DNA of 64,000 bases from a phage, in the sequence record PX441839.1. One strand, 5' to 3'. The position numbers and the translations under genes were made by a program. Below are positions 783 through 54,361 of the stretch, in pieces (positions within the stretch are counted from its first letter, which is position 1; each line of letters begins with the position of its first letter). A model generated the notes under the pieces. The model had not been told where the DNA came from, ran no database searches, and saw only the letters and a program-made list of their open reading frames with translations.

Positions 783-1067
783 ATGATTACATTAAACCGC
801 GATGTTAACGAACAAGTTAAAAACTTTATCCGTCGCCCCCAGGAGTCAGGATACCCGCTAATCCTTGTAATGAAAGATGGTGGTGTGTTGTGTCATGAAT
901 GTGCCAAAAAAGAATTTAAAATGATCATTGCCGATACGCGAGAAGGTTGGAATACAGAATGGACAGCACTTGGAACAGAATTATTTTTAGAGGGTCCTGT
1001 TATTGAGTGTTCTCATTGCTACAAGGATATAGAGAGCGCATACGGCGATCCGAATTCAGAAGAATAA
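783..1067 (+). CDS. small early protein, Cys4 zinc-ribbon-like (94 aa)
   Basis: ORF with promoter, leader hairpin and RBS upstream; Cys pairs C-H-E-C and C-S-H-C. Confidence 0.55.
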   Translation: MITLNRDVNEQVKNFIRRPQESGYPLILVMKDGGVLCHECAKKEFKMIIADTREGWNTEWTALGTELFLEGPVIECSHCYKDIESAYGDPNSEE

Positions 1068-1079
1068 TAAAATAAAGTA

Positions 1080-1108
1080 TTGACAACATAAACAACTTGA
1101 ACGATAAT
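1080..1108 (+). promoter_or_regulatory. sigma70-type early promoter (class I)
   Basis: TTGACA, 17 bp, GATAAT, followed by the conserved leader hairpin at 1118-1136. Confidence 0.55.
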
Positions 1109-1162
1109 GTAACACATAGGGCGACACAACGTCGCCCACTAACAAACTAGTAAGGGTATACA

Positions 1163-1396
1163 ATGAATCTTAATGTTATTGGCGCAAATCAAACGGTTGT
1201 TACTTTTTCAGACAATACTCAATTATTCTATTCTTATAATACCCCAGTGGCTGCTTTTATCCCTGGCGAAGGATACATAGTGACCGCAACAAAGTATAGT
1301 CGTACCACGACACGACACATTAACAACTTTACAGGGGGTTTAGTTGATCGTGTTGAGTCCCAAACATTTTTTGATAATTTAGTAAAAACCGCTTGA
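1163..1396 (+). CDS. hypothetical early protein (77 aa)
   Basis: ORF with own promoter and AGGG RBS. Confidence 0.5.
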   Translation: MNLNVIGANQTVVTFSDNTQLFYSYNTPVAAFIPGEGYIVTATKYSRTTTRHINNFTGGLVDRVESQTFFDNLVKTA

Positions 1397-1430
1397 CGTT
1401 GGTTTATGCCTGGTACATAATACTAGGCAT
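1393..1430 (+). promoter_or_regulatory. sigma70-type early promoter (class II, -10 inside a covarying palindrome)
   Basis: TTGACG, 17 bp, CATAAT; inverted repeat atgcctggta / tactaggcat flanks the -10. Confidence 0.6.
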
Positions 1431-1468
1431 AGGCAAACGAAAGCAGACAACCAAACGAGGGTTACAAA

Positions 1469-1828
1469 ATGACTAACATGATCGCACTGACTGAAAAACG
1501 TAATGCACTGGAAAACATCCTGGCAAAAATCAAAGAGAAGCAAGCAGAAATCGACTCTTTTGAGTACGAGTCCAGCACGTCAGAATATGATGATTATTTG
1601 GACAGTGAAGGGGAAATCACCGTTGCGGGAATGACATTCTGGCCGTCAGATATCCTTAAGAATTGTGATCCTACTGCATACCGTTGCGGGAAAGTGGACT
1701 ATGATTCAAGTAAGGACCTGGATGACGTGGAAGAATACCAGGCGTTACAGGAAGAACTGGAAGAACTGGAAAACGAACGTGACGATCTGGAAAGTGAGAT
1801 CGAAGAACTGGAAGAAGGCGAAGAATAA
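1469..1828 (+). CDS. highly acidic small early protein (119 aa)
   Basis: ORF with class II promoter; C-terminal third is almost entirely Glu/Asp/Leu (EELEELENERDDLESEIEELEEGEE). Confidence 0.55.
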   Translation: MTNMIALTEKRNALENILAKIKEKQAEIDSFEYESSTSEYDDYLDSEGEITVAGMTFWPSDILKNCDPTAYRCGKVDYDSSKDLDDVEEYQALQEELEELENERDDLESEIEELEEGEE

Positions 1829-1833
1829 AAGTA

Positions 1834-1862
1834 TTGACAGGGGCGGTAAAACGCCCCATAAT
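1834..1862 (+). promoter_or_regulatory. sigma70-type early promoter (class III, GGGGCGG/CCGCCCC hairpin in spacer)
   Basis: TTGACA, spacer ggggcggtaaaacgccc, CATAAT; identical copy at 4097-4125. Confidence 0.6.
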
Positions 1863-1892
1863 GACAGGACCAAAACAAAGAGAGTAAAGAAG

Positions 1893-2102
1893 ATGATTAA
1901 CGAAAAACAAATCAATGATATCCGTGACGAAGCCTATCAAGTTGCGATCCGTGACGGTTCCCGCGCCGCCTTTATCTTTGTTACGGATCTTTATCCAGAA
2001 CAGGCAGAAAATATATTGATGCAAGTTTCTGTTTTACTGGAAGCAACAAAGCGCACAAAGTTAAGCAACGGGATCGATAAGTTGGCAAAAACTTTAAAAT
2101 AA
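1893..2102 (+). CDS. hypothetical early protein (69 aa)
   Basis: First ATG downstream of the class III promoter, in frame with listed ORF 1665..2102. Confidence 0.45.
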   Translation: MINEKQINDIRDEAYQVAIRDGSRAAFIFVTDLYPEQAENILMQVSVLLEATKRTKLSNGIDKLAKTLK

Positions 2103-2104
2103 TT

Positions 2105-2143
2105 GTTGACTTTGATTTATGCCGCTGTATAATGGGCGGCATA
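2105..2143 (+). promoter_or_regulatory. sigma70-type early promoter (class II)
   Basis: TTGACT, 17 bp, TATAAT; palindrome atgccgc / gcggcat flanks the -10. Confidence 0.55.
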
Positions 2144-2185
2144 GGTAAGAGAAACAAACACAAACCAAGTAAACAAGGGTGTATC

Positions 2186-2674
2186 ATGAAAATTGAAAAA
2201 TTCAAATCACTGTCTAACTATTCTTCCGACTTGATTGACGGCGTGATCCAAGCTTTTGGGAGTGAAGAATATTTCCTGGAGAGTTTTAGAGATGTTGCTC
2301 GATACGGCGGCGACAAAGGGATCGGTTTCATTTACTACACGGAAACGGACCAATTCTGGAAAGATTTAGGCCCACAAATTAAAGAGATGGTAGAAATAGA
2401 CGCCGAATCTTTCACCGGATCAAATGACTATTACACCGTGTGCGAAATGCTGGCAGGGTTCAAAATCTCAAAACAAAATGATCTTTGTGTTGACAAGTGG
2501 TTAGAGTTCCTATATGGTATCAGCCAGGACGAAGAAAATAGTTTAGATGCCCTTTGTGATGAGTGGGATCAAAATATGGCCCGTTGGGTGCTGGGGGTGT
2601 ATGCCGTTGAACGTGTATCCCAAGATCTGGAAAGTTTAATTGATAACGGGGATATTGACGAGGAAGATGTTTAA
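2186..2674 (+). CDS. hypothetical early protein (162 aa)
   Basis: ATG at 2186 downstream of promoter; the listed start at 2132 lies inside the -10 element. Confidence 0.5.
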   Translation: MKIEKFKSLSNYSSDLIDGVIQAFGSEEYFLESFRDVARYGGDKGIGFIYYTETDQFWKDLGPQIKEMVEIDAESFTGSNDYYTVCEMLAGFKISKQNDLCVDKWLEFLYGISQDEENSLDALCDEWDQNMARWVLGVYAVERVSQDLESLIDNGDIDEEDV

Positions 2675-2985
2675 TGCTAACGTGGATCGTGTTGGCTTTA
2701 TGCGGGGTGGCGGCGATCTTTTGTGTCGCCACACATAAAAAGTACCTTTACAAAAAGGCTGAAAAAGTGTTCGGATACTTTGAGTATGAATATGATGGGG
2801 AGGTTTCCACATCGCGGGACTATGGACCTATGCTTGAAATTGATATGGTGGGCGCTATGCGACACCGCCAGGAGTGTGGCGCACACATAACGTTTAGTCA
2901 TTTTGGAACAGAAGATGAGATTTTCGACATCATAGACAAACGAGAATATTTGCGCCAACAACAAAAAACACGCCGTAAGTTTTAA
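2674..2985 (+). CDS. hypothetical membrane-anchored early protein (103 aa)
   Basis: Start overlaps the upstream stop (TAATG); hydrophobic N-terminal segment. Confidence 0.45.
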   Translation: MLTWIVLALCGVAAIFCVATHKKYLYKKAEKVFGYFEYEYDGEVSTSRDYGPMLEIDMVGAMRHRQECGAHITFSHFGTEDEIFDIIDKREYLRQQQKTRRKF

Positions 2986-3007
2986 TTGAGTAGAGAGAGG
3001 GTTTAAG

Positions 3008-3148
3008 ATGATTGCAACTAATACTAACCGTGACAAAATCAGCCATAAGAACAAATTAAGCTATGGTGAAGCAAAGGAGCGGATCACAGTATCAAAGGCC
3101 AATAAGCAACAACGCCGCAAAACGCGCTATAGCTGGGACAGCTTATAA
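3008..3148 (+). CDS. small basic protein (46 aa), not in the ORF track
   Basis: ATG at 3008 after GAGAGGG RBS; Arg/Lys-rich C-terminus; terminator hairpin follows at 3188-3214. Confidence 0.3.
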   Translation: MIATNTNRDKISHKNKLSYGEAKERITVSKANKQQRRKTRYSWDSL

Positions 3149-3187
3149 AGAGGGGAGGATTGTACCCACACTGATTTAAAACCTTAC

Positions 3188-3214
3188 AGGGGCCTTTATA
3201 GGCCCCTTATTTTT
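3188..3214 (+). terminator. rho-independent terminator
   Basis: aggggcc-tttata-ggcccct followed by a T-run. Confidence 0.5.
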
Positions 3215-3230
3215 GATAAGAGGTATCAAC

Positions 3231-3458
3231 ATGCAGAACATTTTAGGTTTAACTGATTTTATCCGCGCCCTTAAGGGCCGATCGTTGGGTTTTTCTGCCG
3301 TCTATATGGTGCCGGAGGGTAAGACATACAGCCAAGCCGTTAATGGCCTTATAGCAACGGCGGCAAGGGAAAACGTGAAGATCTCCACAGGCCAGATCCT
3401 AGCAGTTGATCCCGCCACATTTGCCACCATAGCGGCGATCAAAGTTACCGTAAAATAA
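3231..3458 (+). CDS. hypothetical early protein (75 aa)
   Basis: ATG at 3231 after AAGAGG RBS. Confidence 0.45.
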   Translation: MQNILGLTDFIRALKGRSLGFSAVYMVPEGKTYSQAVNGLIATAARENVKISTGQILAVDPATFATIAAIKVTVK

Positions 3459-3481
3459 TTTAAAATATTTTGTTTTTGGGT

Positions 3482-3510
3482 GTTGACAGGGGAAAGGGAT
3501 TGCCCCATAA
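3482..3510 (+). promoter_or_regulatory. sigma70-type early promoter (class III + leader hairpin)
   Basis: TTGACA, 17 bp with gggg..cccc, CATAAT; degenerate leader hairpin at 3515-3537. Confidence 0.55.
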
Positions 3511-3574
3511 TACACCACATAGAGCGACACAACGTCGCAAATTAAAACCAACTAACTAAGAGTGAGACAGTAAA

Positions 3575-4093
3575 ATGGGAAGCCCAAACTTTAAAACTTC
3601 AAACGTAAGATTAAACCTTGCATCTTTCCCGTTCAATGATTACAATGATGATGAGGAGATTCAAGAGCAAAACTATGAAGACCACAGTTATTGGGTAGAA
3701 CAGCAATATGAAGCAATGAAAGCGGTTATCGATGAGATTCCTACCCCTGATTTTTGGGATATCCACATCGAAAGCGGCTATCATGAAGGATTCCAGGTAT
3801 ACATTGAAAGTAATTGCGGCGATGATTATCAGGATCAAGTGTTCCAAGATCTTTACCGTTACAATGAGGCTTGCTTGCCGTCAGGTTATCCTTTAAATAT
3901 GCAAGACTTACCTTACGCAAGAAAGGGATCTGTAAACATTACCCCTTTTAATTTGAAATATGCTATTGAAAACGAGTACAAGGCGATCCATAATAAGATT
4001 TTAGCAGCAGCAAAGGAGGCTGGGATCGGTGAAGTGTTCGGATCTTCCTGGTGCTCAAATGTAGGACCTATTGAAAGTAAACTGATTAAATAA
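3575..4093 (+). CDS. hypothetical early protein (172 aa)
   Basis: ORF with promoter and leader upstream; acidic N-terminal region. Confidence 0.55.
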   Translation: MGSPNFKTSNVRLNLASFPFNDYNDDEEIQEQNYEDHSYWVEQQYEAMKAVIDEIPTPDFWDIHIESGYHEGFQVYIESNCGDDYQDQVFQDLYRYNEACLPSGYPLNMQDLPYARKGSVNITPFNLKYAIENEYKAIHNKILAAAKEAGIGEVFGSSWCSNVGPIESKLIK

Positions 4094-4096
4094 ATG

Positions 4097-4125
4097 TTGA
4101 CAGGGGCGGTAAAACGCCCCATAAT
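4097..4125 (+). promoter_or_regulatory. sigma70-type early promoter (class III)
   Basis: Identical to the promoter at 1834-1862. Confidence 0.6.
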
Positions 4126-4156
4126 GACAAGACCAAAACAAAAAGAGAAAGAAACA

Positions 4157-4309
4157 ATGAAACACTATCTAGTTAATATACCTGGTGTTGCGGGACCGCT
4201 CAAAGTTTACGGGTACGACGAAAAGGACGCAAGAAAGCGCCTACGTGATCGGGAAGGGTACAGAAAACGCCTACCCAATGGCACAAAACTTTATTTAAAA
4301 ACAGCTTGA
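4157..4309 (+). CDS. small basic protein (50 aa)
   Basis: First ATG after the promoter; listed ORF 4094..4309 begins inside the promoter. Confidence 0.4.
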   Translation: MKHYLVNIPGVAGPLKVYGYDEKDARKRLRDREGYRKRLPNGTKLYLKTA

Positions 4310-4345
4310 CGTTAGGTTATGCCGCCCCTATAATGGACGGCATAG
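4306..4345 (+). promoter_or_regulatory. sigma70-type early promoter (class II)
   Basis: TTGACG, 17 bp, TATAAT; palindrome atgccgcc / ggacggcat around the -10. Confidence 0.55.
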
Positions 4346-4375
4346 GCAAACGAAAGAAAACTAAGGTGATTCATT

Positions 4376-4648
4376 ATGAAAAGTAAACTGTCAAGAGAAG
4401 AAATTAGTCAAGTGTTATCTTTCAACATGCAAGACTGGAAAGAAAACGCCGACATTTGCGAAGCTCAAGATCTTAACGAAGAATTAACAATTGACGAAAT
4501 AAGCATTGTGTGCTCACCTGATTTTTATGATGAGTTGCACGAAAAAGATGATCTTTTTAACGTCCTGGAGAATAATTTCATGGATACCGATTTATGTGTG
4601 TACAGTATCGATACTTTTATTCTTATCCATAACATATACAACAACTAA
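4376..4648 (+). CDS. hypothetical acidic early protein (90 aa)
   Basis: ORF with promoter and RBS. Confidence 0.5.
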   Translation: MKSKLSREEISQVLSFNMQDWKENADICEAQDLNEELTIDEISIVCSPDFYDELHEKDDLFNVLENNFMDTDLCVYSIDTFILIHNIYNN

Positions 4649-5031: not shown

Positions 5032-5223
5032 ATGAAATCATCTTTACTTTTTTGCACTGTAAACATCATCATTGGTAACGGTTGCGGATCTCATGAATTT
5101 ATTAAGGGCAAGCCTTACAGCCTTTCATCGCTGCAAGCTGATTTTCGTTTATTGCCAGGACAGATCCGCAAATACTTTCGCGCCCCGTATCCAAAAGGAT
5201 ATAAAACAAATTTAGCAAAATAA
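5032..5223 (+). CDS. hypothetical early protein (63 aa)
   Basis: ORF with promoter and RBS. Confidence 0.4.
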   Translation: MKSSLLFCTVNIIIGNGCGSHEFIKGKPYSLSSLQADFRLLPGQIRKYFRAPYPKGYKTNLAK

Positions 5224-5227
5224 AGTA

Positions 5228-5256
5228 TTGACAAGGGGCACAGATTACCCCATAAT
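5228..5256 (+). promoter_or_regulatory. sigma70-type early promoter (class III + leader hairpin)
   Basis: TTGACA, 17 bp with gggg..cccc, CATAAT; leader hairpin at 5267-5285. Confidence 0.55.
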
Positions 5257-5307
5257 GTAACACATAGGGCGACACAACGTCGCCCACTAACAAAAGAGAT
5301 AAACAAA

Positions 5308-5592
5308 ATGATCAAGGCAAACAACTTTTTCTTCCTGGCTAACGTAGCGGATCACATCGTGGCAGAATTTAGAAACGTGGATGCAACAGCATTTATAAAA
5401 ATGCGTCATGAAAAAGACGTTTCAACGGATCGCGTAGAAATGGAAGTTACCCGCCACGGCAAAGAGTTTAAAATCAAATATCTGATTATCGTAAATAATG
5501 CAACATTTAGCGAGGGAACCAGCGAACCGATCCCGGACAATATGATCCAGCAAGTGATCGCCGCCGTTGCTAACGGATCAATTTTACCTTAA
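5308..5592 (+). CDS. hypothetical early protein (94 aa)
   Basis: ORF with promoter and leader. Confidence 0.5.
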   Translation: MIKANNFFFLANVADHIVAEFRNVDATAFIKMRHEKDVSTDRVEMEVTRHGKEFKIKYLIIVNNATFSEGTSEPIPDNMIQQVIAAVANGSILP

Positions 5593-5599
5593 AAAGTTG

Positions 5600-5640
5600 T
5601 TGACGTTGGTTTATGTGGGGCGTATAATTCCCCACATAGA
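5600..5640 (+). promoter_or_regulatory. sigma70-type early promoter (class II)
   Basis: TTGACG, 17 bp, TATAAT; palindrome atgtggggcg / ccccacat around the -10. Confidence 0.55.
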
Positions 5641-5661
5641 CAAACGAAACGAGAGATTAAA

Positions 5662-5926: not shown

Positions 5927-6079
5927 ATGTATAAGCTGTTAACCTGGGAACATGAGACAAGCCAACCGATTAGCCGTGACTTTTTCGATTTGTGCGCCGC
6001 TTACCGACTGGCAAAAGGCGGTTACTATAAAGCCCAAATCATTGATGAAAATAATGTTGTACTTTATGAGTTTAAATGA
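5927..6079 (+). CDS. small protein (50 aa), not in the ORF track
   Basis: ATG at 5927 after AAGGA RBS; followed by hairpin gcgccccgaaaggggcg at 6087-6103. Confidence 0.3.
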   Translation: MYKLLTWEHETSQPISRDFFDLCAAYRLAKGGYYKAQIIDENNVVLYEFK

Positions 6080-6133
6080 TTAACAAGCGCCCCGAAAGGG
6101 GCGATAATTACCACACAAAACAGGAGACAGTAA

Positions 6134-6376: not shown

Positions 6377-6536
6377 TAGTTGACTACAACGAAAGAAAAG
6401 AATACTATGTATCACATGAAAGGCAAACAGCCTAAACCAACAAAGAGAGAAACAAAATGAGCGTAGTATTCTTAATTTCAGTTTTCGTAGCTATCGCCGC
6501 TTCAACCGCAATTTGTGTAAAATTAGGATGGTAAGA

Positions 6537-6932
6537 ATGGAAAGTGTAAAAGATACCCTGTTAAATGCTTTTTTGTCCGGCGCTACTGAGGCGTTATTGT
6601 TCGCAGAATCCGCAGAAGATGCAAACGGGGAGACAATCGAACATTTGAACGGTTACGAATTAAGCAATGCAAGCAAAGCACTGTTAAAACTGGAATCTGT
6701 TAAATTCTTAGATTTAGGAAACAACTTAATAGAAAAAGCTATTGACAGTAGCGGCGATTTATACGATTATACTCAAGCGGGGCGGGATTTTTGGTTTACT
6801 CGTCAAGGTCACGGCGTAGGATTCTGGGATCGGGGTCTTGGGGAAGTTGGGGACCAGCTAACAGAACTTTCAAAATGTTTCGGTGAGCGCTGGATCTCTT
6901 TGAATGAAAATAATTTTGTAGAGGTTGAATGA
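6537..6932 (+). CDS. hypothetical protein (about 131 aa; start uncertain)
   Basis: In frame with listed ORF 6513..6932; ATG at 6537 has an AGGA RBS. Confidence 0.45.
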   Translation: MESVKDTLLNAFLSGATEALLFAESAEDANGETIEHLNGYELSNASKALLKLESVKFLDLGNNLIEKAIDSSGDLYDYTQAGRDFWFTRQGHGVGFWDRGLGEVGDQLTELSKCFGERWISLNENNFVEVE

Positions 6933-52138: not shown

Positions 52139-52173
52139 TCTTAATACATAGCCCGTAAGGAATTGCGGGATTG

Positions 52174-52249
52174 CCGATTTAGCTCAGTTGGTAGAGCGCT
52201 TCACTTGTAATGATGATGTCGCAGGTTCGAGTCCTGCAATCGGCACCAG
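52174..52249 (+). tRNA. tRNA-Thr (anticodon UGU)
   Basis: Manual cloverleaf: acceptor gccgatt/aatcggc, D-arm gctc-agttggta-gagc, T-arm gcagg-ttcgagt-cctgc, CCA encoded; one U-U mismatch in the anticodon stem. Confidence 0.7.
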
Positions 52250-52254
52250 ATAAG

Positions 52255-52328
52255 GCCCAATAGCTCACTGGTGAGAGCCAACCCCTCATAAGGGTTAGGG
52301 CGGGGATCGTAACCCCGGTGGGCCACCA
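52255..52328 (+). tRNA. tRNA-Met (anticodon CAU; initiator, elongator or Ile-lysidine not distinguished)
   Basis: Acceptor ggcccaa/gtgggcc, anticodon arm aaccc-ctcataa-gggtt, CCA encoded. Confidence 0.75.
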
Positions 52329-52347
52329 ACCAAAGAGAGAATTTAGC

Positions 52348-52426
52348 GCGGGTGTATCTCATCCGTCTTCTAAACGGACGTTAACCGAGTAATTGGAGTA
52401 TGGGGGTTCGAATCCCTCCACCCGCG
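52348..52426 (+). tRNA. atypical tRNA-like gene with anticodon-type hairpin UCU (Arg?)
   Basis: Canonical T-arm ggggg-ttcgaat-ccctc and acceptor gcgggtg/cacccgc, but no D-arm, a 23-nt extra segment, no CCA, and the acceptor extends to a perfect 16-bp stem (52339-52354 / 52419-52434). Confidence 0.4.
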
Positions 52427-52450
52427 CTAAATTCTTTTGAGGTGTAAAAA

Positions 52451-52966
52451 TTGCTAAACTTGAAAAATCAAAATATAGATAAAGGCACGGGATATTTATA
52501 CGTGTACGATCCAAGTCACCCAATGGCAAATAAGTCTGGAAAGGTTTATGTTCACAGGTATGTTGCAGAGACGGGGTTTGGTATAAAACTAACACCTGAC
52601 CTGATAGTTCACCACAAGGATGAGAATAAGCTAAACAACGAGCTAACAAATCTCGAAGTTATGACTTATTCTGAACATGCCCGTCACCACCACGGGGCGG
52701 ATTTTGTAGAATGTGTATGCAAGACCTGTGGCAATGTAACTTTGAGGAGGCCCTCGGAAGTTGTATCATTTTGTTCACACAAGTGCTCAACAACATTCAG
52801 AAGGAAATTTGAAATCTCTCCTCAAGAGTTGCAGGATTTGGTTTGTAACTACCCAGTTAGTGTTATTGCAAAGATGTTTGGGGTTAGTGATACAGCAATA
52901 CACAAGAAATGTAAAACCCTAGGGATTAAAAAGATGCCGAAAGGATTCTTTTTAAGACTCCCTTGA
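52451..52966 (+). CDS. HNH homing endonuclease
   Basis: YVHRYVAE ... IVHHKDENKLNNELTNLEVMTYSEHARHH is a classic HNH motif; C-terminal Cys cluster and HTH-like region. Confidence 0.7.
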   Translation: MLNLKNQNIDKGTGYLYVYDPSHPMANKSGKVYVHRYVAETGFGIKLTPDLIVHHKDENKLNNELTNLEVMTYSEHARHHHGADFVECVCKTCGNVTLRRPSEVVSFCSHKCSTTFRRKFEISPQELQDLVCNYPVSVIAKMFGVSDTAIHKKCKTLGIKKMPKGFFLRLP

Positions 52967-52998
52967 CATAGGTAATTGATCCTGATAAGATAATTACA

Positions 52999-53397
52999 TT
53001 GTTTCATTTCGGGATCGACAATATGGCAAAAGCTGAGATCGTAACCCGTAAGCGTGGACGGCCTTCGAAAGAAGAAAGCACAGCCATTGCTACTGAAAAG
53101 GCAATTCTTGAATATCGCCTTAAAGTGGCGATGTTATTACCTACCGCTGTTGATACCCTTAAAGGTCTGTTAACGTCAGGCTCTGAAAAAGTTAAAGAGG
53201 GTACTGCAAAATTCCTGATCAATGAGGCTAAAGAGGTGTTTAACATCTACGTCGCAGAAGATAATCAGGACAGTGAAGCAGGTGGTACAGTATCTGCAAA
53301 CTCACAGACCCACGCTGGATCGTCTGATGAGATTAAAAACATTATGCCTCTTACTACGGAAATCCGTGAGTACAAGATGGCAGAAGGTGAAGATTAA
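52999..53397 (+). CDS. hypothetical protein with AT-hook-like RKRGRPSK (about 125-132 aa)
   Basis: Six-frame ORF; terminator follows. Confidence 0.45.
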   Translation: MFHFGIDNMAKAEIVTRKRGRPSKEESTAIATEKAILEYRLKVAMLLPTAVDTLKGLLTSGSEKVKEGTAKFLINEAKEVFNIYVAEDNQDSEAGGTVSANSQTHAGSSDEIKNIMPLTTEIREYKMAEGED

Positions 53398-53428
53398 GAC
53401 CCTTCGGGGTCTTTGAGTTTTCTTTTGA
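53398..53428 (+). terminator. rho-independent terminator
   Basis: gaccc-ttcg-gggtc followed by tttgagttttctttt. Confidence 0.5.
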
Positions 53429-53457
53429 CGATTATTTTCGTACAAAAGAGAATTTAA

Positions 53458-53544
53458 GCCAGGTTATACCGTAGGGGTAGCGGAGGAGACTGTAAATCTC
53501 TGGTCATTGCGACTCGGGTGGTTCGACGCCATCACCTGGCACCA
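53458..53544 (+). tRNA. tRNA-Tyr (anticodon GUA), type II
   Basis: Acceptor gccaggt/acctggc, anticodon arm ggaga-ctgtaaa-tctct, long variable arm, CCA encoded. Confidence 0.7.
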
Positions 53545-53549
53545 AATAT

Positions 53550-53639
53550 GGAGAGTTGGCAGAGCGGCTGAATGCACCTGACTTGAAATCAGGCGACCGT
53601 TAACTCGGTCCGTGGGTTCAAATCCTACGCTCTCCGCCA
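53550..53639 (+). tRNA. tRNA-Ser (anticodon UGA), type II
   Basis: Tracks E. coli tRNA-Ser: ggagagt-tg-gcagagcggctgaatgc ... cctga-cttgaaa-tcagg ... gtggg-ttcaaat-cctac ... gctctcc-g-cca. Confidence 0.85.
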
Positions 53640-53720
53640 AATATCGCCCCTTATATAAAAGAACACCTGCGCGGCTGGAAAAACCCACTCAACAGTTCTT
53701 GAAAAGGGGCAACAATTTAC

Positions 53721-53798
53721 GGATCATTAGCTACAATTGGTTAGAGCGGCTCACTGTTAATGAGACGGTTCGTGGTTCAAGTCCACGATGATCCGCCA
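53721..53798 (+). tRNA. tRNA-Asn (anticodon GUU)
   Basis: Acceptor ggatcat/atgatcc, anticodon loop ctgttaa, T-arm cgtgg-ttcaagt-ccacg, CCA encoded. Confidence 0.8.
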
Positions 53799-53805
53799 AA
53801 CAATA

Positions 53806-53950
53806 GAAGGGTAACTTAAAGGCGGGTGTCCTGCCACTGGCCTCCAAAACCAGTCGTAAGGGGTTAGATTCCTCACTCTTCTGCCAAGTCGGGGTGTGCG
53901 CCAAATAAGAGCGGGTTAGCAACTGTGTTGTAGATTAGTCTACCACCCCA
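53806..53950 (+). ncRNA. degenerate tRNA-like sequences / possible small stable RNAs within the tRNA cluster
   Basis: Hairpins actgg-cctccaaaa-ccagt and gtaga-ttag-tctac plus tRNA-like termini (agaaggg ... ctcttct-g-cca), but no canonical cloverleaf. Confidence 0.3.
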
Positions 53951-53960
53951 CACAATAAGA

Positions 53961-54036
53961 AGTCCTATAGTTTCAGCGGTTAAAATACTCGCCTGTCACG
54001 CGAGAGTCACGGGTTCGAATCCCGTTAGGACTGCCA
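53961..54036 (+). tRNA. tRNA-Asp (anticodon GUC)
   Basis: Acceptor agtccta/taggact, anticodon arm ctcgc-ctgtcac-gcgag, T-arm acggg-ttcgaat-cccgt, CCA encoded. Confidence 0.8.
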
Positions 54037-54043
54037 TTTCTGA

Positions 54044-54119
54044 TGGAGATTAGCTCAGTAGGTAGAGCAAGCGACCGATAATCGCTGGGTCACTGGTTCA
54101 AGTCCAGTATCTCCAACCA
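54044..54119 (+). tRNA. tRNA-Ile (anticodon GAU), with unusual C at position 33
   Basis: Acceptor tggagat/atctcca, D-arm gctc-agtaggta-gagc, anticodon arm agcga-ccgataa-tcgct, T-arm actgg-ttcaagt-ccagt, CCA encoded. Confidence 0.65.
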
Positions 54120-54124
54120 AATAC

Positions 54125-54201
54125 CTCCGTGTAGCTCAGTCTGGTAGAGCGATTGCTTTGGGAGCAATAGGTCCAACGTTCGAGTCGTTGTACGGAGACC
54201 A
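54125..54201 (+). tRNA. tRNA-Pro (anticodon UGG)
   Basis: Acceptor ctccgtg/tacggag, anticodon arm attgc-tttggga-gcaat, T-arm caacg-ttcgagt-cgttg, CCA encoded. Confidence 0.85.
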
Positions 54202-54204
54202 AAT

Positions 54205-54279
54205 TGGGGATTAGCCAAGCGGTAAGGCACGAGGCTTTGATCCTTGTATGCGGAGGTTCGAATCCTCCATCCCCAGCCA
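54205..54279 (+). tRNA. tRNA-Gln (anticodon UUG)
   Basis: Acceptor tggggat/atcccca, anticodon loop ctttgat, T-arm ggagg-ttcgaat-cctcc, CCA encoded. Confidence 0.8.
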
Positions 54280-54284
54280 AATAA

Positions 54285-54361
54285 GCGTCCTTAGTGTCAG
54301 TGGTCTAACACTCCATCCTTCCAAGTTGGAACCACGGGTTCGAATCCCGTAGGACGCTCCA
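54285..54361 (+). tRNA. tRNA-Gly (anticodon UCC)
   Basis: Acceptor gcgtcct/aggacgc, anticodon loop cttccaa, T-arm acggg-ttcgaat-cccgt, CCA encoded. Confidence 0.8.

Follow-up and report, generated by a model that had tools for sequence, protein, structure and literature searches.

A large family of acidic early phage proteins with a predicted helical-hairpin fold: candidate nucleic-acid decoys

The open reading frame at positions 1469–1828 (+ strand) of the window, by which we mean the whole 64-kb stretch of phage DNA analyzed here, encodes a strongly acidic protein of 119 amino acids. Its sequence and its modeled structure indicate that it is a real early gene of an rV5-like Salmonella phage, and that its product belongs to a large, conserved and apparently phage-only family combining a confident and distinctive predicted architecture with a polyanionic surface under strong selection. 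From these features, and by analogy with known mimics, we infer a possible function: the protein may imitate nucleic acid as a polyanionic decoy and so block a DNA- or RNA-binding protein of the host, a reading to which we give somewhat less than an even chance. Phages of the rV5-like group (Vequintavirinae) are often considered for therapy, and of their small early genes, roughly 100 in number, most lack a known function. If the protein turns out to mimic DNA, the known mimics would be joined by one of a new design, in which an antiparallel hairpin formed within one chain carries a capping domain, and there would be a new tool to block DNA-binding defense proteins. If it does not, its conserved core would still mark an unstudied host-interaction module.

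Results

An early gene with its own promoter

Over window bases 1000–4000, the DNA is 97.8% identical to that of Salmonella phage SSBI34 (MZ520832.1, Vequintavirinae, 141 kb); the identity is about 98% in the early region and about 95% past it, and the more distant Vequintavirinae relatives include Cronobacter phage CR3 and Pectobacterium phages. The window crosses the ends of the SSBI34 record: its position ~10,964 falls on base 18 of that GenBank record, so that the two are numbered from different start points. The + strand of the first ~9 kb is densely filled with small ORFs, almost each of which is preceded by a near-consensus sigma-70 promoter. Judging from the sequence, this one-promoter-per-gene layout is that of an early accessory region transcribed by the host polymerase. 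Elsewhere in the window, 10 tRNA genes are clustered at 52173–54361 on the + strand (Thr, Met, Tyr, Ser, Asn, Asp, Ile, Pro, Gln and Gly).

The reading frame at 1469–1828 proved to be as originally predicted, with 119 codons followed by a TAA stop, and the SSBI34 ortholog (QYC52638.1) is 97% identical to its product. A Shine–Dalgarno sequence, GAGGG (1457–1461, + strand), lies 7 nt upstream of the ATG, and a sigma-70-type promoter (1393–1421, + strand) consists of the −35 element TTGACG (1393–1398), a 17-nt spacer and the −10 element CATAAT (1416–1421). This promoter had been counted among the strongest early promoters, a description that the comparison with its neighbors contradicts: it agrees with the consensus at 10 of 12 positions and has no TG extension, whereas 11 neighboring promoters reach 11 of 12. 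It thus appears to be a good promoter, but under the local norm. The rV5 ortholog, ORF192, likewise has its own annotated promoter, P192. On the 3′ side, the next gene (1893–2102; 69 aa, phrog_13802) is again served by its own promoter (1834–1862). Three ORFs that overlap the 3′ half of 1469–1828, namely 1665–2102 (+), 1671–2024 (−) and 1699–1878 (−), were rejected as genes; they are artefacts of a GAA/CTG-rich repeat, and their translations contain KNWKNWK or SSSSSS runs.

The promoter is part of a 66-nt repeated element (1383–1448, + strand; repeat family D4), other copies of which start at 4296 and 5590, and its −10 box is surrounded by an inverted repeat (TATGCCT at 1405–1411 and AGGCATA at 1425–1431). 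More generally, the early promoters form families of repeated 40–80-nt cassettes, each composed of a promoter, a G+C-rich hairpin and a leader, and they lie at 691–768, 1069–1146, 1383–1448, 1829–1887, 3472–3549, 4092–4150, 4296–4361, 5217–5294, 5590–5655 and 6075–6133. One family has the −10 box between the two arms of the inverted repeat, whose stem has undergone compensatory changes between copies (TATGCCTGG/CTAGGCATA, ATGCCGCC/GGACGGCAT and ATGTGGGG/CCCCACAT); in another, a hairpin, GGGGCG-GTAAAA-CGCCCC, is situated within the 17-nt spacer. By this sequence evidence, the early promoters of the window are not independent of one another. We take the cassettes to resemble the promoter-early-stem-loop mobile regulatory cassettes of T4-type phages.

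Two other ORFs of the early block deserve mention in their own right. ORF 783–1067 (+) encodes an acidic protein of 94 aa with two Cys pairs (CHEC ... CSHC), which suggest a zinc ribbon; it matches phrog_18452, whose label "DNA ligase" is implausible for a protein of this size. ORF 2186–2674 (+), which encodes the next acidic early protein (charge about −18), has a weak match to DUF7222 that stays below the threshold (E=3.8e-5; 24.3 bits, where 27 would be required). Either 2132 or 2186 could be its start, the shorter form being the one annotated in SSBI34.

Acidity of the protein and of its homologs

Computation bore out the strong acidity on which the original prediction of a DNA mimic was based, giving a pI of 4.05 and a net charge of −28, with 38 Asp/Glu and 10 Lys/Arg residues. 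The C-terminal third had been described as made almost entirely of Glu, Asp and Leu; the bias is there, as the last 39 residues include 21 Asp/Glu and 6 Leu, but at 69% the wording was somewhat overstated. Among the 187 ATG-initiated ORFs of at least 60 aa in the 64-kb window, the protein is the most acidic, with 31.9% Asp/Glu compared with 26% for the runner-up, and its acidity is far beyond chance. The neighboring early ORFs are acidic as well, as had been noted: 338–682 (charge −10), 2132–2674 (−18), 3575–4093 (−16), 4376–4648 (−16) and 6528–6932 (−13). Acidity alone therefore discriminates poorly, because acidic small proteins, several of these neighbors included, are common among phage early genes.

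The homologs allow the charge to be followed across the family. All 269 of the 269 homologs examined have a pI of 4.58 or lower, and their median net charge is −30, which argues that acidity is under selection across the family. The family median charges are about −14 for the core (59 residues), about −13 for the C-terminal arm and about −2 for the N-terminal arm. Thus, the negative charge is spread across the core and the C-terminal arm and is not a property of the C-terminal third alone.

A large family restricted to phages

The protein matches the phrog_9294 HMM with E=6.2e-21 (residues 10–118 against profile positions 16–126 of 127) and, more weakly, phrog_9396 and phrog_37123. It has its core motif and its architecture in common with PHROG 9294, rV5 ORF192 and BASEL bas55_0106, and on the strength of the sequence comparisons we regard PHROG 9294, 9396 and 37123 and these two proteins as true homologs. 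None of the three PHROGs has an assigned function, and membership is uninformative in this respect. A database search returned 146 homologs (E≤1e-3), mostly on phage contigs of 140–156 kb. An exhaustive profile search gave 621 cluster representatives (50% identity, E≤1e-10), and a second profile search gave 561 clusters (90% identity, E≤1e-5), where the sole names were automatic coiled-coil labels. Pfam yielded only sub-threshold coiled-coil matches for the 119-aa protein (best 25 of 29 at E≤10). The label "SH3 domain protein" of QYC52638.1, which rests on a match to a bee protein, was rejected, as there is no SH3 domain among the Pfam matches and the model is helical with a single β-hairpin; the automatic homolog names "CwlO-like", "prefoldin" and "Zn-ribbon" are likewise without support from Pfam or the model. 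In the literature on Vequintavirinae with anti-defense, PARIS and BREX and in the EVADES database paper, we found no characterized homolog.

Members of the family occur in rV5 and many other E. coli Vequintavirus genomes, BASEL phages included, in Klebsiella phages of 142–150 kb and in phages of Serratia, Aeromonas, Vibrio and Pseudomonas. They also occur in Clavibacter phage CMP1, where the gene lies ~3.5 kb from the terminal repeat, and in the T7-like Novosibovirus phages of Proteus and Providencia, where the gene is 2–3.5 kb from the left end of most records. The candidate mimic family thus spans hundreds of clusters from phages of Enterobacteria, Vibrio, Pseudomonas, Aeromonas and Actinobacteria. 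In the PLSDB plasmid collection, a homolog was found in a single record, CP057073.1 ("E. coli plasmid", 137,565 bp), and in no real plasmid; this record has the size of an rV5-like genome, and its 38.7% match is identical to rV5's own. Since this 137.6-kb record was the only PLSDB match, we rejected plasmid leading regions as a home of the family, which, as far as the sequence searches indicate, is restricted to phages. Homolog P0273 is annotated on an E. coli contig of 285,623 bp; for this contig and CP057073.1, a carrier state, contamination or mis-assembly are possible.

The Novosibovirus phages place the family next to a known DNA mimic. Proteus phage 309 (OL416096.1) carries, in one early block, a core-only family member at 2464–2679 and, five genes downstream, a true Ocr at 3796–4140, which matched the Pfam ocr model (PF08684) with E=1e-43 and served as the positive control for that model. 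In Proteus phage RS1pmA, the family member (3156–3371) is also core-only, and a search of the first 7.3 kb revealed no Ocr. The Ocr slot is thus variable among Novosibovirus, whereas a family member is present in every Novosibovirus record examined. Because phage 309 carries both, the family member and Ocr are not simply interchangeable. Their co-location fits an early anti-defense or host-takeover neighborhood.

A predicted acidic hairpin capped by a conserved core

AlphaFold modeled the protein with a pLDDT of 94.5 and a pTM of 0.74 as two helices of ~30 residues forming an antiparallel hairpin ~45 Å long, capped by a conserved core of ~55 residues. The structure prediction supports the idea of a mimic in part: the exposed face of the hairpin is almost all Glu/Asp, but Ocr and ArdA, like gp5.9 and Gam, are absent among the 50–60 PDB matches listed. 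The N-terminal helix (residues 2–29; 1472–1555, + strand) is modeled as an amphipathic heptad arm whose surface mixes Lys and Glu; its a/d positions are conserved as hydrophobic, with an enrichment of Lys/Arg at what we assign as heptad e. The C-terminal helix (residues 88–118; 1730–1822, + strand) has Leu/Ile at heptad a/d and Glu/Asp nearly everywhere else. Across 270 sequences, its a and d positions are at least 90% Leu/Ile, whereas most of the other positions are 55–90% Asp/Glu and all are at most 23% Lys/Arg. In the DNA, Tandem Repeats Finder detected a 21-nt periodicity (2.9 copies at 1754–1813, + strand), and the 3′ part of the gene has a 9-nt periodicity besides. As the 21-nt period of the acidic helix equals one heptad, the sequence suggests that this helix has grown by heptad duplication.

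The lengths of the two arms are matched, with medians of 30 residues for the N-terminal and 31 for the C-terminal arm, and they are correlated (Spearman 0.42 for 265 homologs and 0.48 for the 250 in which both arms are shorter than 60 residues, kinship being ignored in both). Even apart from the model, then, the sequence data favor the two-arm anatomy. The core motif flanked by heptad helices with at least 90% hydrophobic residues at a/d, which characterizes PHROG 9294, is found in the 119-aa protein as well.

The apical core (residues 30–87; 1556–1729, + strand) is predicted to run helix, β-hairpin, helix, helix, and its motif reads FEY..(Y/F)D..LD..G.V.V.G..F.(P/A)S..LK..DP.AYRCG..DY..(D). 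Conservation in the alignments is highest at D67 (98%), A70 (95%), P68 (91%), Y71 (89%) and R72 (83%). Ser60, Asp67-Pro68 and Asp83 are of the kinds that would cap helices, and Tyr40, Leu44, Phe57, Leu63, Tyr71 and Tyr78 would pack a small hydrophobic core. The invariant core residues thus look structural and form no catalytic-looking constellation.

The core is also an independent module. It stands without arms, followed by an acidic tail with no heptad pattern, in ORF4 of Proteus phage RS1pmA (71 aa) and in Clavibacter phage CMP1-68 (94 aa), and in the metagenomic proteins P0226 and P0259, it is repeated in tandem (×2), again without coiled-coil arms, such that cores may work in pairs. In a few homologs, it is fused to unrelated domains. 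One of these, the metagenomic P0257 (222 aa), has the family domain followed by Kyano_Gp96 (PF23790, E=1.7e-10). The likeness of that domain to the product of the upstream ORF 1163–1396, first judged by eye, would have been a Rosetta-stone lead; it was rejected, as BLASTP gave E=0.88 and the two belong to different PHROGs (554 and 5643). The extra regions of P0253, P0226, P0184, P0258, P0245 and P0238 held no informative Pfam domain.

Discussion

A polyanionic decoy as the preferred reading

The features described above would come together in a decoy as follows. Soon after infection, host RNA polymerase would transcribe 1469–1828 from its own sigma-70 promoter, and the protein would fold into the antiparallel two-helix hairpin, ~45 Å long and closed at one end by the small conserved α/β core. 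Leucines would zip the two arms together, leaving about 30 net negative charges on the solvent face. The acidic rod could then fill the basic surface with which a host protein binds nucleic acid and compete with DNA, as Ocr, ArdA, Gam and gp5.9 do, with the conserved core making the rod stable and, to some extent, specific for its target. Among targets, a type I restriction-modification or BREX-like complex would be the most attractive, and RecBCD, SMC complexes, nucleoid proteins and RNA polymerase would be equally allowed.

The main rival is a host-takeover role that is mediated by the core and involves no mimicry, which we consider possible but doubtful. According to this explanation, the core would, again doubtfully, bind one defined host protein, such as a transcription, replication, division or nucleoid factor, and the acidic hairpin might, with as little assurance, be a soluble, non-sticky stalk or a dimerization handle. 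It would account well for the fact that conservation in the family is strongest in the core motif and not in the arms, for the occurrence of the core without arms, in tandem and in fusions, and for the presence of a family member alongside Ocr in phage 309. However, the core is itself strongly acidic (median −14 over 59 residues), and the members that have lost the arms keep acidic tails. Moreover, across 270 sequences Lys/Arg are almost shut out of the exposed face of the C-terminal helix, to a degree that exceeds the needs of solubility, and the conserved core residues seem to resemble helix caps and packing residues and not an exposed binding patch. A polyanionic decoy accommodates these latter features, and we prefer it for now.

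Restriction of phages that carry the family

[quoted passage not shown] To this version the plating data of the BASEL collection are relevant (S1 Data; PMC8594841, supplementary file 7; phages MZ501082, MZ501048 and MZ501093), as the E. coli Vequintavirus phages MaxBurger, JeffSchatz and AlexBoehm each carry a family homolog. The site counts given here are the values tabulated for Bas48 and Bas55–57, the count for MaxBurger not being included. With the type I enzymes, the efficiency of plating (EOP) was 0.1–0.75 for EcoKI (type IA; 11–14 recognition sites) and 0.2–4.7 for EcoCFT_I (type IB; 4–6 sites). With the type II enzymes, it was ~5e-4 for EcoRI (26–38 sites) and ≤1e-6 for EcoRV (84–110 sites), and with the type III enzymes, it was <1e-12, that is, no plaques, for EcoCFT_II (288–306 sites) and ranged from no plaques to 0.5 for EcoP1_I (191–218 sites). 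Thus, EcoRI, EcoRV and EcoCFT_II restricted these phages 10^3-fold or more.

A passage of the BASEL paper ascribes the weak type I restriction to rare sites, and another calls the Vequintavirinae "exceptionally susceptible" to restriction-modification (PMC8594841). We rejected the latter statement as an argument against anti-restriction, since the raw plating data bear it out for types II and III but not for type I. As to the former, only 3 EcoKI sites suffice in a siphovirus for about 10^4-fold restriction by this enzyme. Because 11–14 EcoKI sites are tolerated, whereas the 3-site phage is restricted 10^4-fold, the data point to a type-I-specific counter-defense in the E. coli Vequintavirus phages. 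By analogy, such selective escape would be the phenotype expected of an Ocr/ArdA-type inhibitor. The plating data fit a type I inhibitor somewhere in the genome and do not single out the 1469–1828 family gene.

That this gene is the inhibitor is, in our view, unlikely, even though several observations favor it. The phages that show selective type I insensitivity carry the homolog; in JeffSchatz, bas55_0106, which belongs to the family, ranks first in acidity among the 105 small CDS of the 60–110-kb region; and the size and charge of the 119-aa protein are nearly those of Ocr. In addition, no Ocr homolog was detected in the window or the JeffSchatz region examined, and among the records sampled, Ocr homologs are seemingly confined to podophages of ~37–46 kb. 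Against it, the protein has no homology to Ocr or ArdA, the correlation between insensitivity and the homolog is drawn from one phage group, and true Ocr co-occurs with the family in Proteus phage 309. Each of some 100 other early genes could also account for the insensitivity, as could phage methyltransferases, N6-adenine and Dcm-like enzymes being encoded by Vequintavirus phages. The family nevertheless offers the most obvious single gene to test for rV5-like type I escape, and a sensible first candidate, because no other small early protein of such a phage is as acidic as its member there and because it extends over hundreds of clusters in distant phage groups.

Chaperone-like and accidental origins

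A prefoldin-like or scaffold coiled coil, that is, a chaperone or assembly factor whose arms hold clients in the manner of prefoldin tentacles, is very improbable. The topology of N-terminal helix, β-hairpin and C-terminal helix does recall prefoldin beta, and the 119-aa protein and its homologs have weak Prefoldin_2 and Prefoldin Pfam matches. However, all of these prefoldin matches fall short of the curated cut-offs, prefoldin beta (PF01920) scoring 15.7 bits against a gathering threshold of 27.6, and are typical of any coiled coil, and Foldseek gave E≥1.8 against prefoldin chains and E≥0.8 for all PDB matches. The tips of prefoldin arms are hydrophobic, whereas the arm here is uniformly anionic, and the gene lies among early accessory genes and not among morphogenesis genes. 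Finally, the notion of a compositional accident of a GAA-rich repeat, or of a dispensable gene with no selected function, draws on the 21-nt and 9-nt periodicities and on the spurious overlapping ORFs that the same repeat creates, but is effectively refuted by conservation, since hundreds of homologs share invariant core residues in phages that infect Enterobacteria, Vibrio, Pseudomonas, Aeromonas and Clavibacter, and is further countered by the highly confident fold prediction and by the gene's own promoter and ribosome-binding site.

Comparison with known DNA mimics

Neither Pfam ocr nor ArdA (PF07275) is among the Pfam matches of the 119-aa protein (best 25 of 29 at E≤10), and the Ocr and ArdA families are, on this sequence evidence, excluded as homologs. 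Foldseek against the PDB gave no E lower than 0.8, and thus nothing at E≤0.001, with Rad50 and prefoldin coiled coils as the best matches; sequence searches of the PDB with the single sequence and with an 88-sequence profile returned coiled-coil noise only (best E=0.04); and the BFVD matches were uncharacterized phage proteins only, all of them members of the family. The 119-aa protein therefore seems to fall outside every known DNA-mimic family, although it could act in a similar mode. It might even be the founding member of a widespread coiled-coil DNA-mimic family unrelated to Ocr, ArdA, Gam and gp5.9, and at the same time the source of the type I (possibly BREX) insensitivity of rV5-like phages, a combination that we think improbable.

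Ocr offers the closest likeness in composition, with 116 aa and 34 acidic and 6 basic residues compared with 119 aa and 38 and 10 here, and it too is a small, mostly helical early phage protein with an acidic C-terminus. The folds differ, however: Ocr is a curved helical-bundle dimer that mimics bent B-DNA, a shape that the model does not reproduce, whereas the protein described here is predicted to be an intramolecular two-helix hairpin with an apical core. ArdA is a very acidic anti-restriction DNA mimic of plasmids and transposons that is expressed early and is specific for type I systems. The 119-aa protein is likewise very acidic, encoded by a mobile element and early, but ArdA has another fold, and the present family is absent from real plasmids. 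T5 Ptr1 and Ptr2, acidic proteins with no assigned function that trigger PARIS defense, make small, highly acidic phage proteins with an unassigned primary function a recognized class, to which the 119-aa protein bears a likeness; they differ in that no T5-like phage is among the genera and records listed by tblastn for the family.

The nearest parallel in the manner of display is T7 gp5.9, a natural coiled-coil DNA mimic with a pI of 4.0 that inhibits RecBCD. The PDB sequence search revealed no sequence relationship between the two proteins. Both are highly acidic phage proteins that present their acidic residues on a coiled coil, but gp5.9 does so as a parallel homodimer, whereas the 119-aa protein is modeled as a single-chain antiparallel hairpin with a conserved globular cap. 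Taken together, the evidence fits the general class in which the original prediction had placed this protein, that of small, very acidic, early-expressed candidate DNA mimics.
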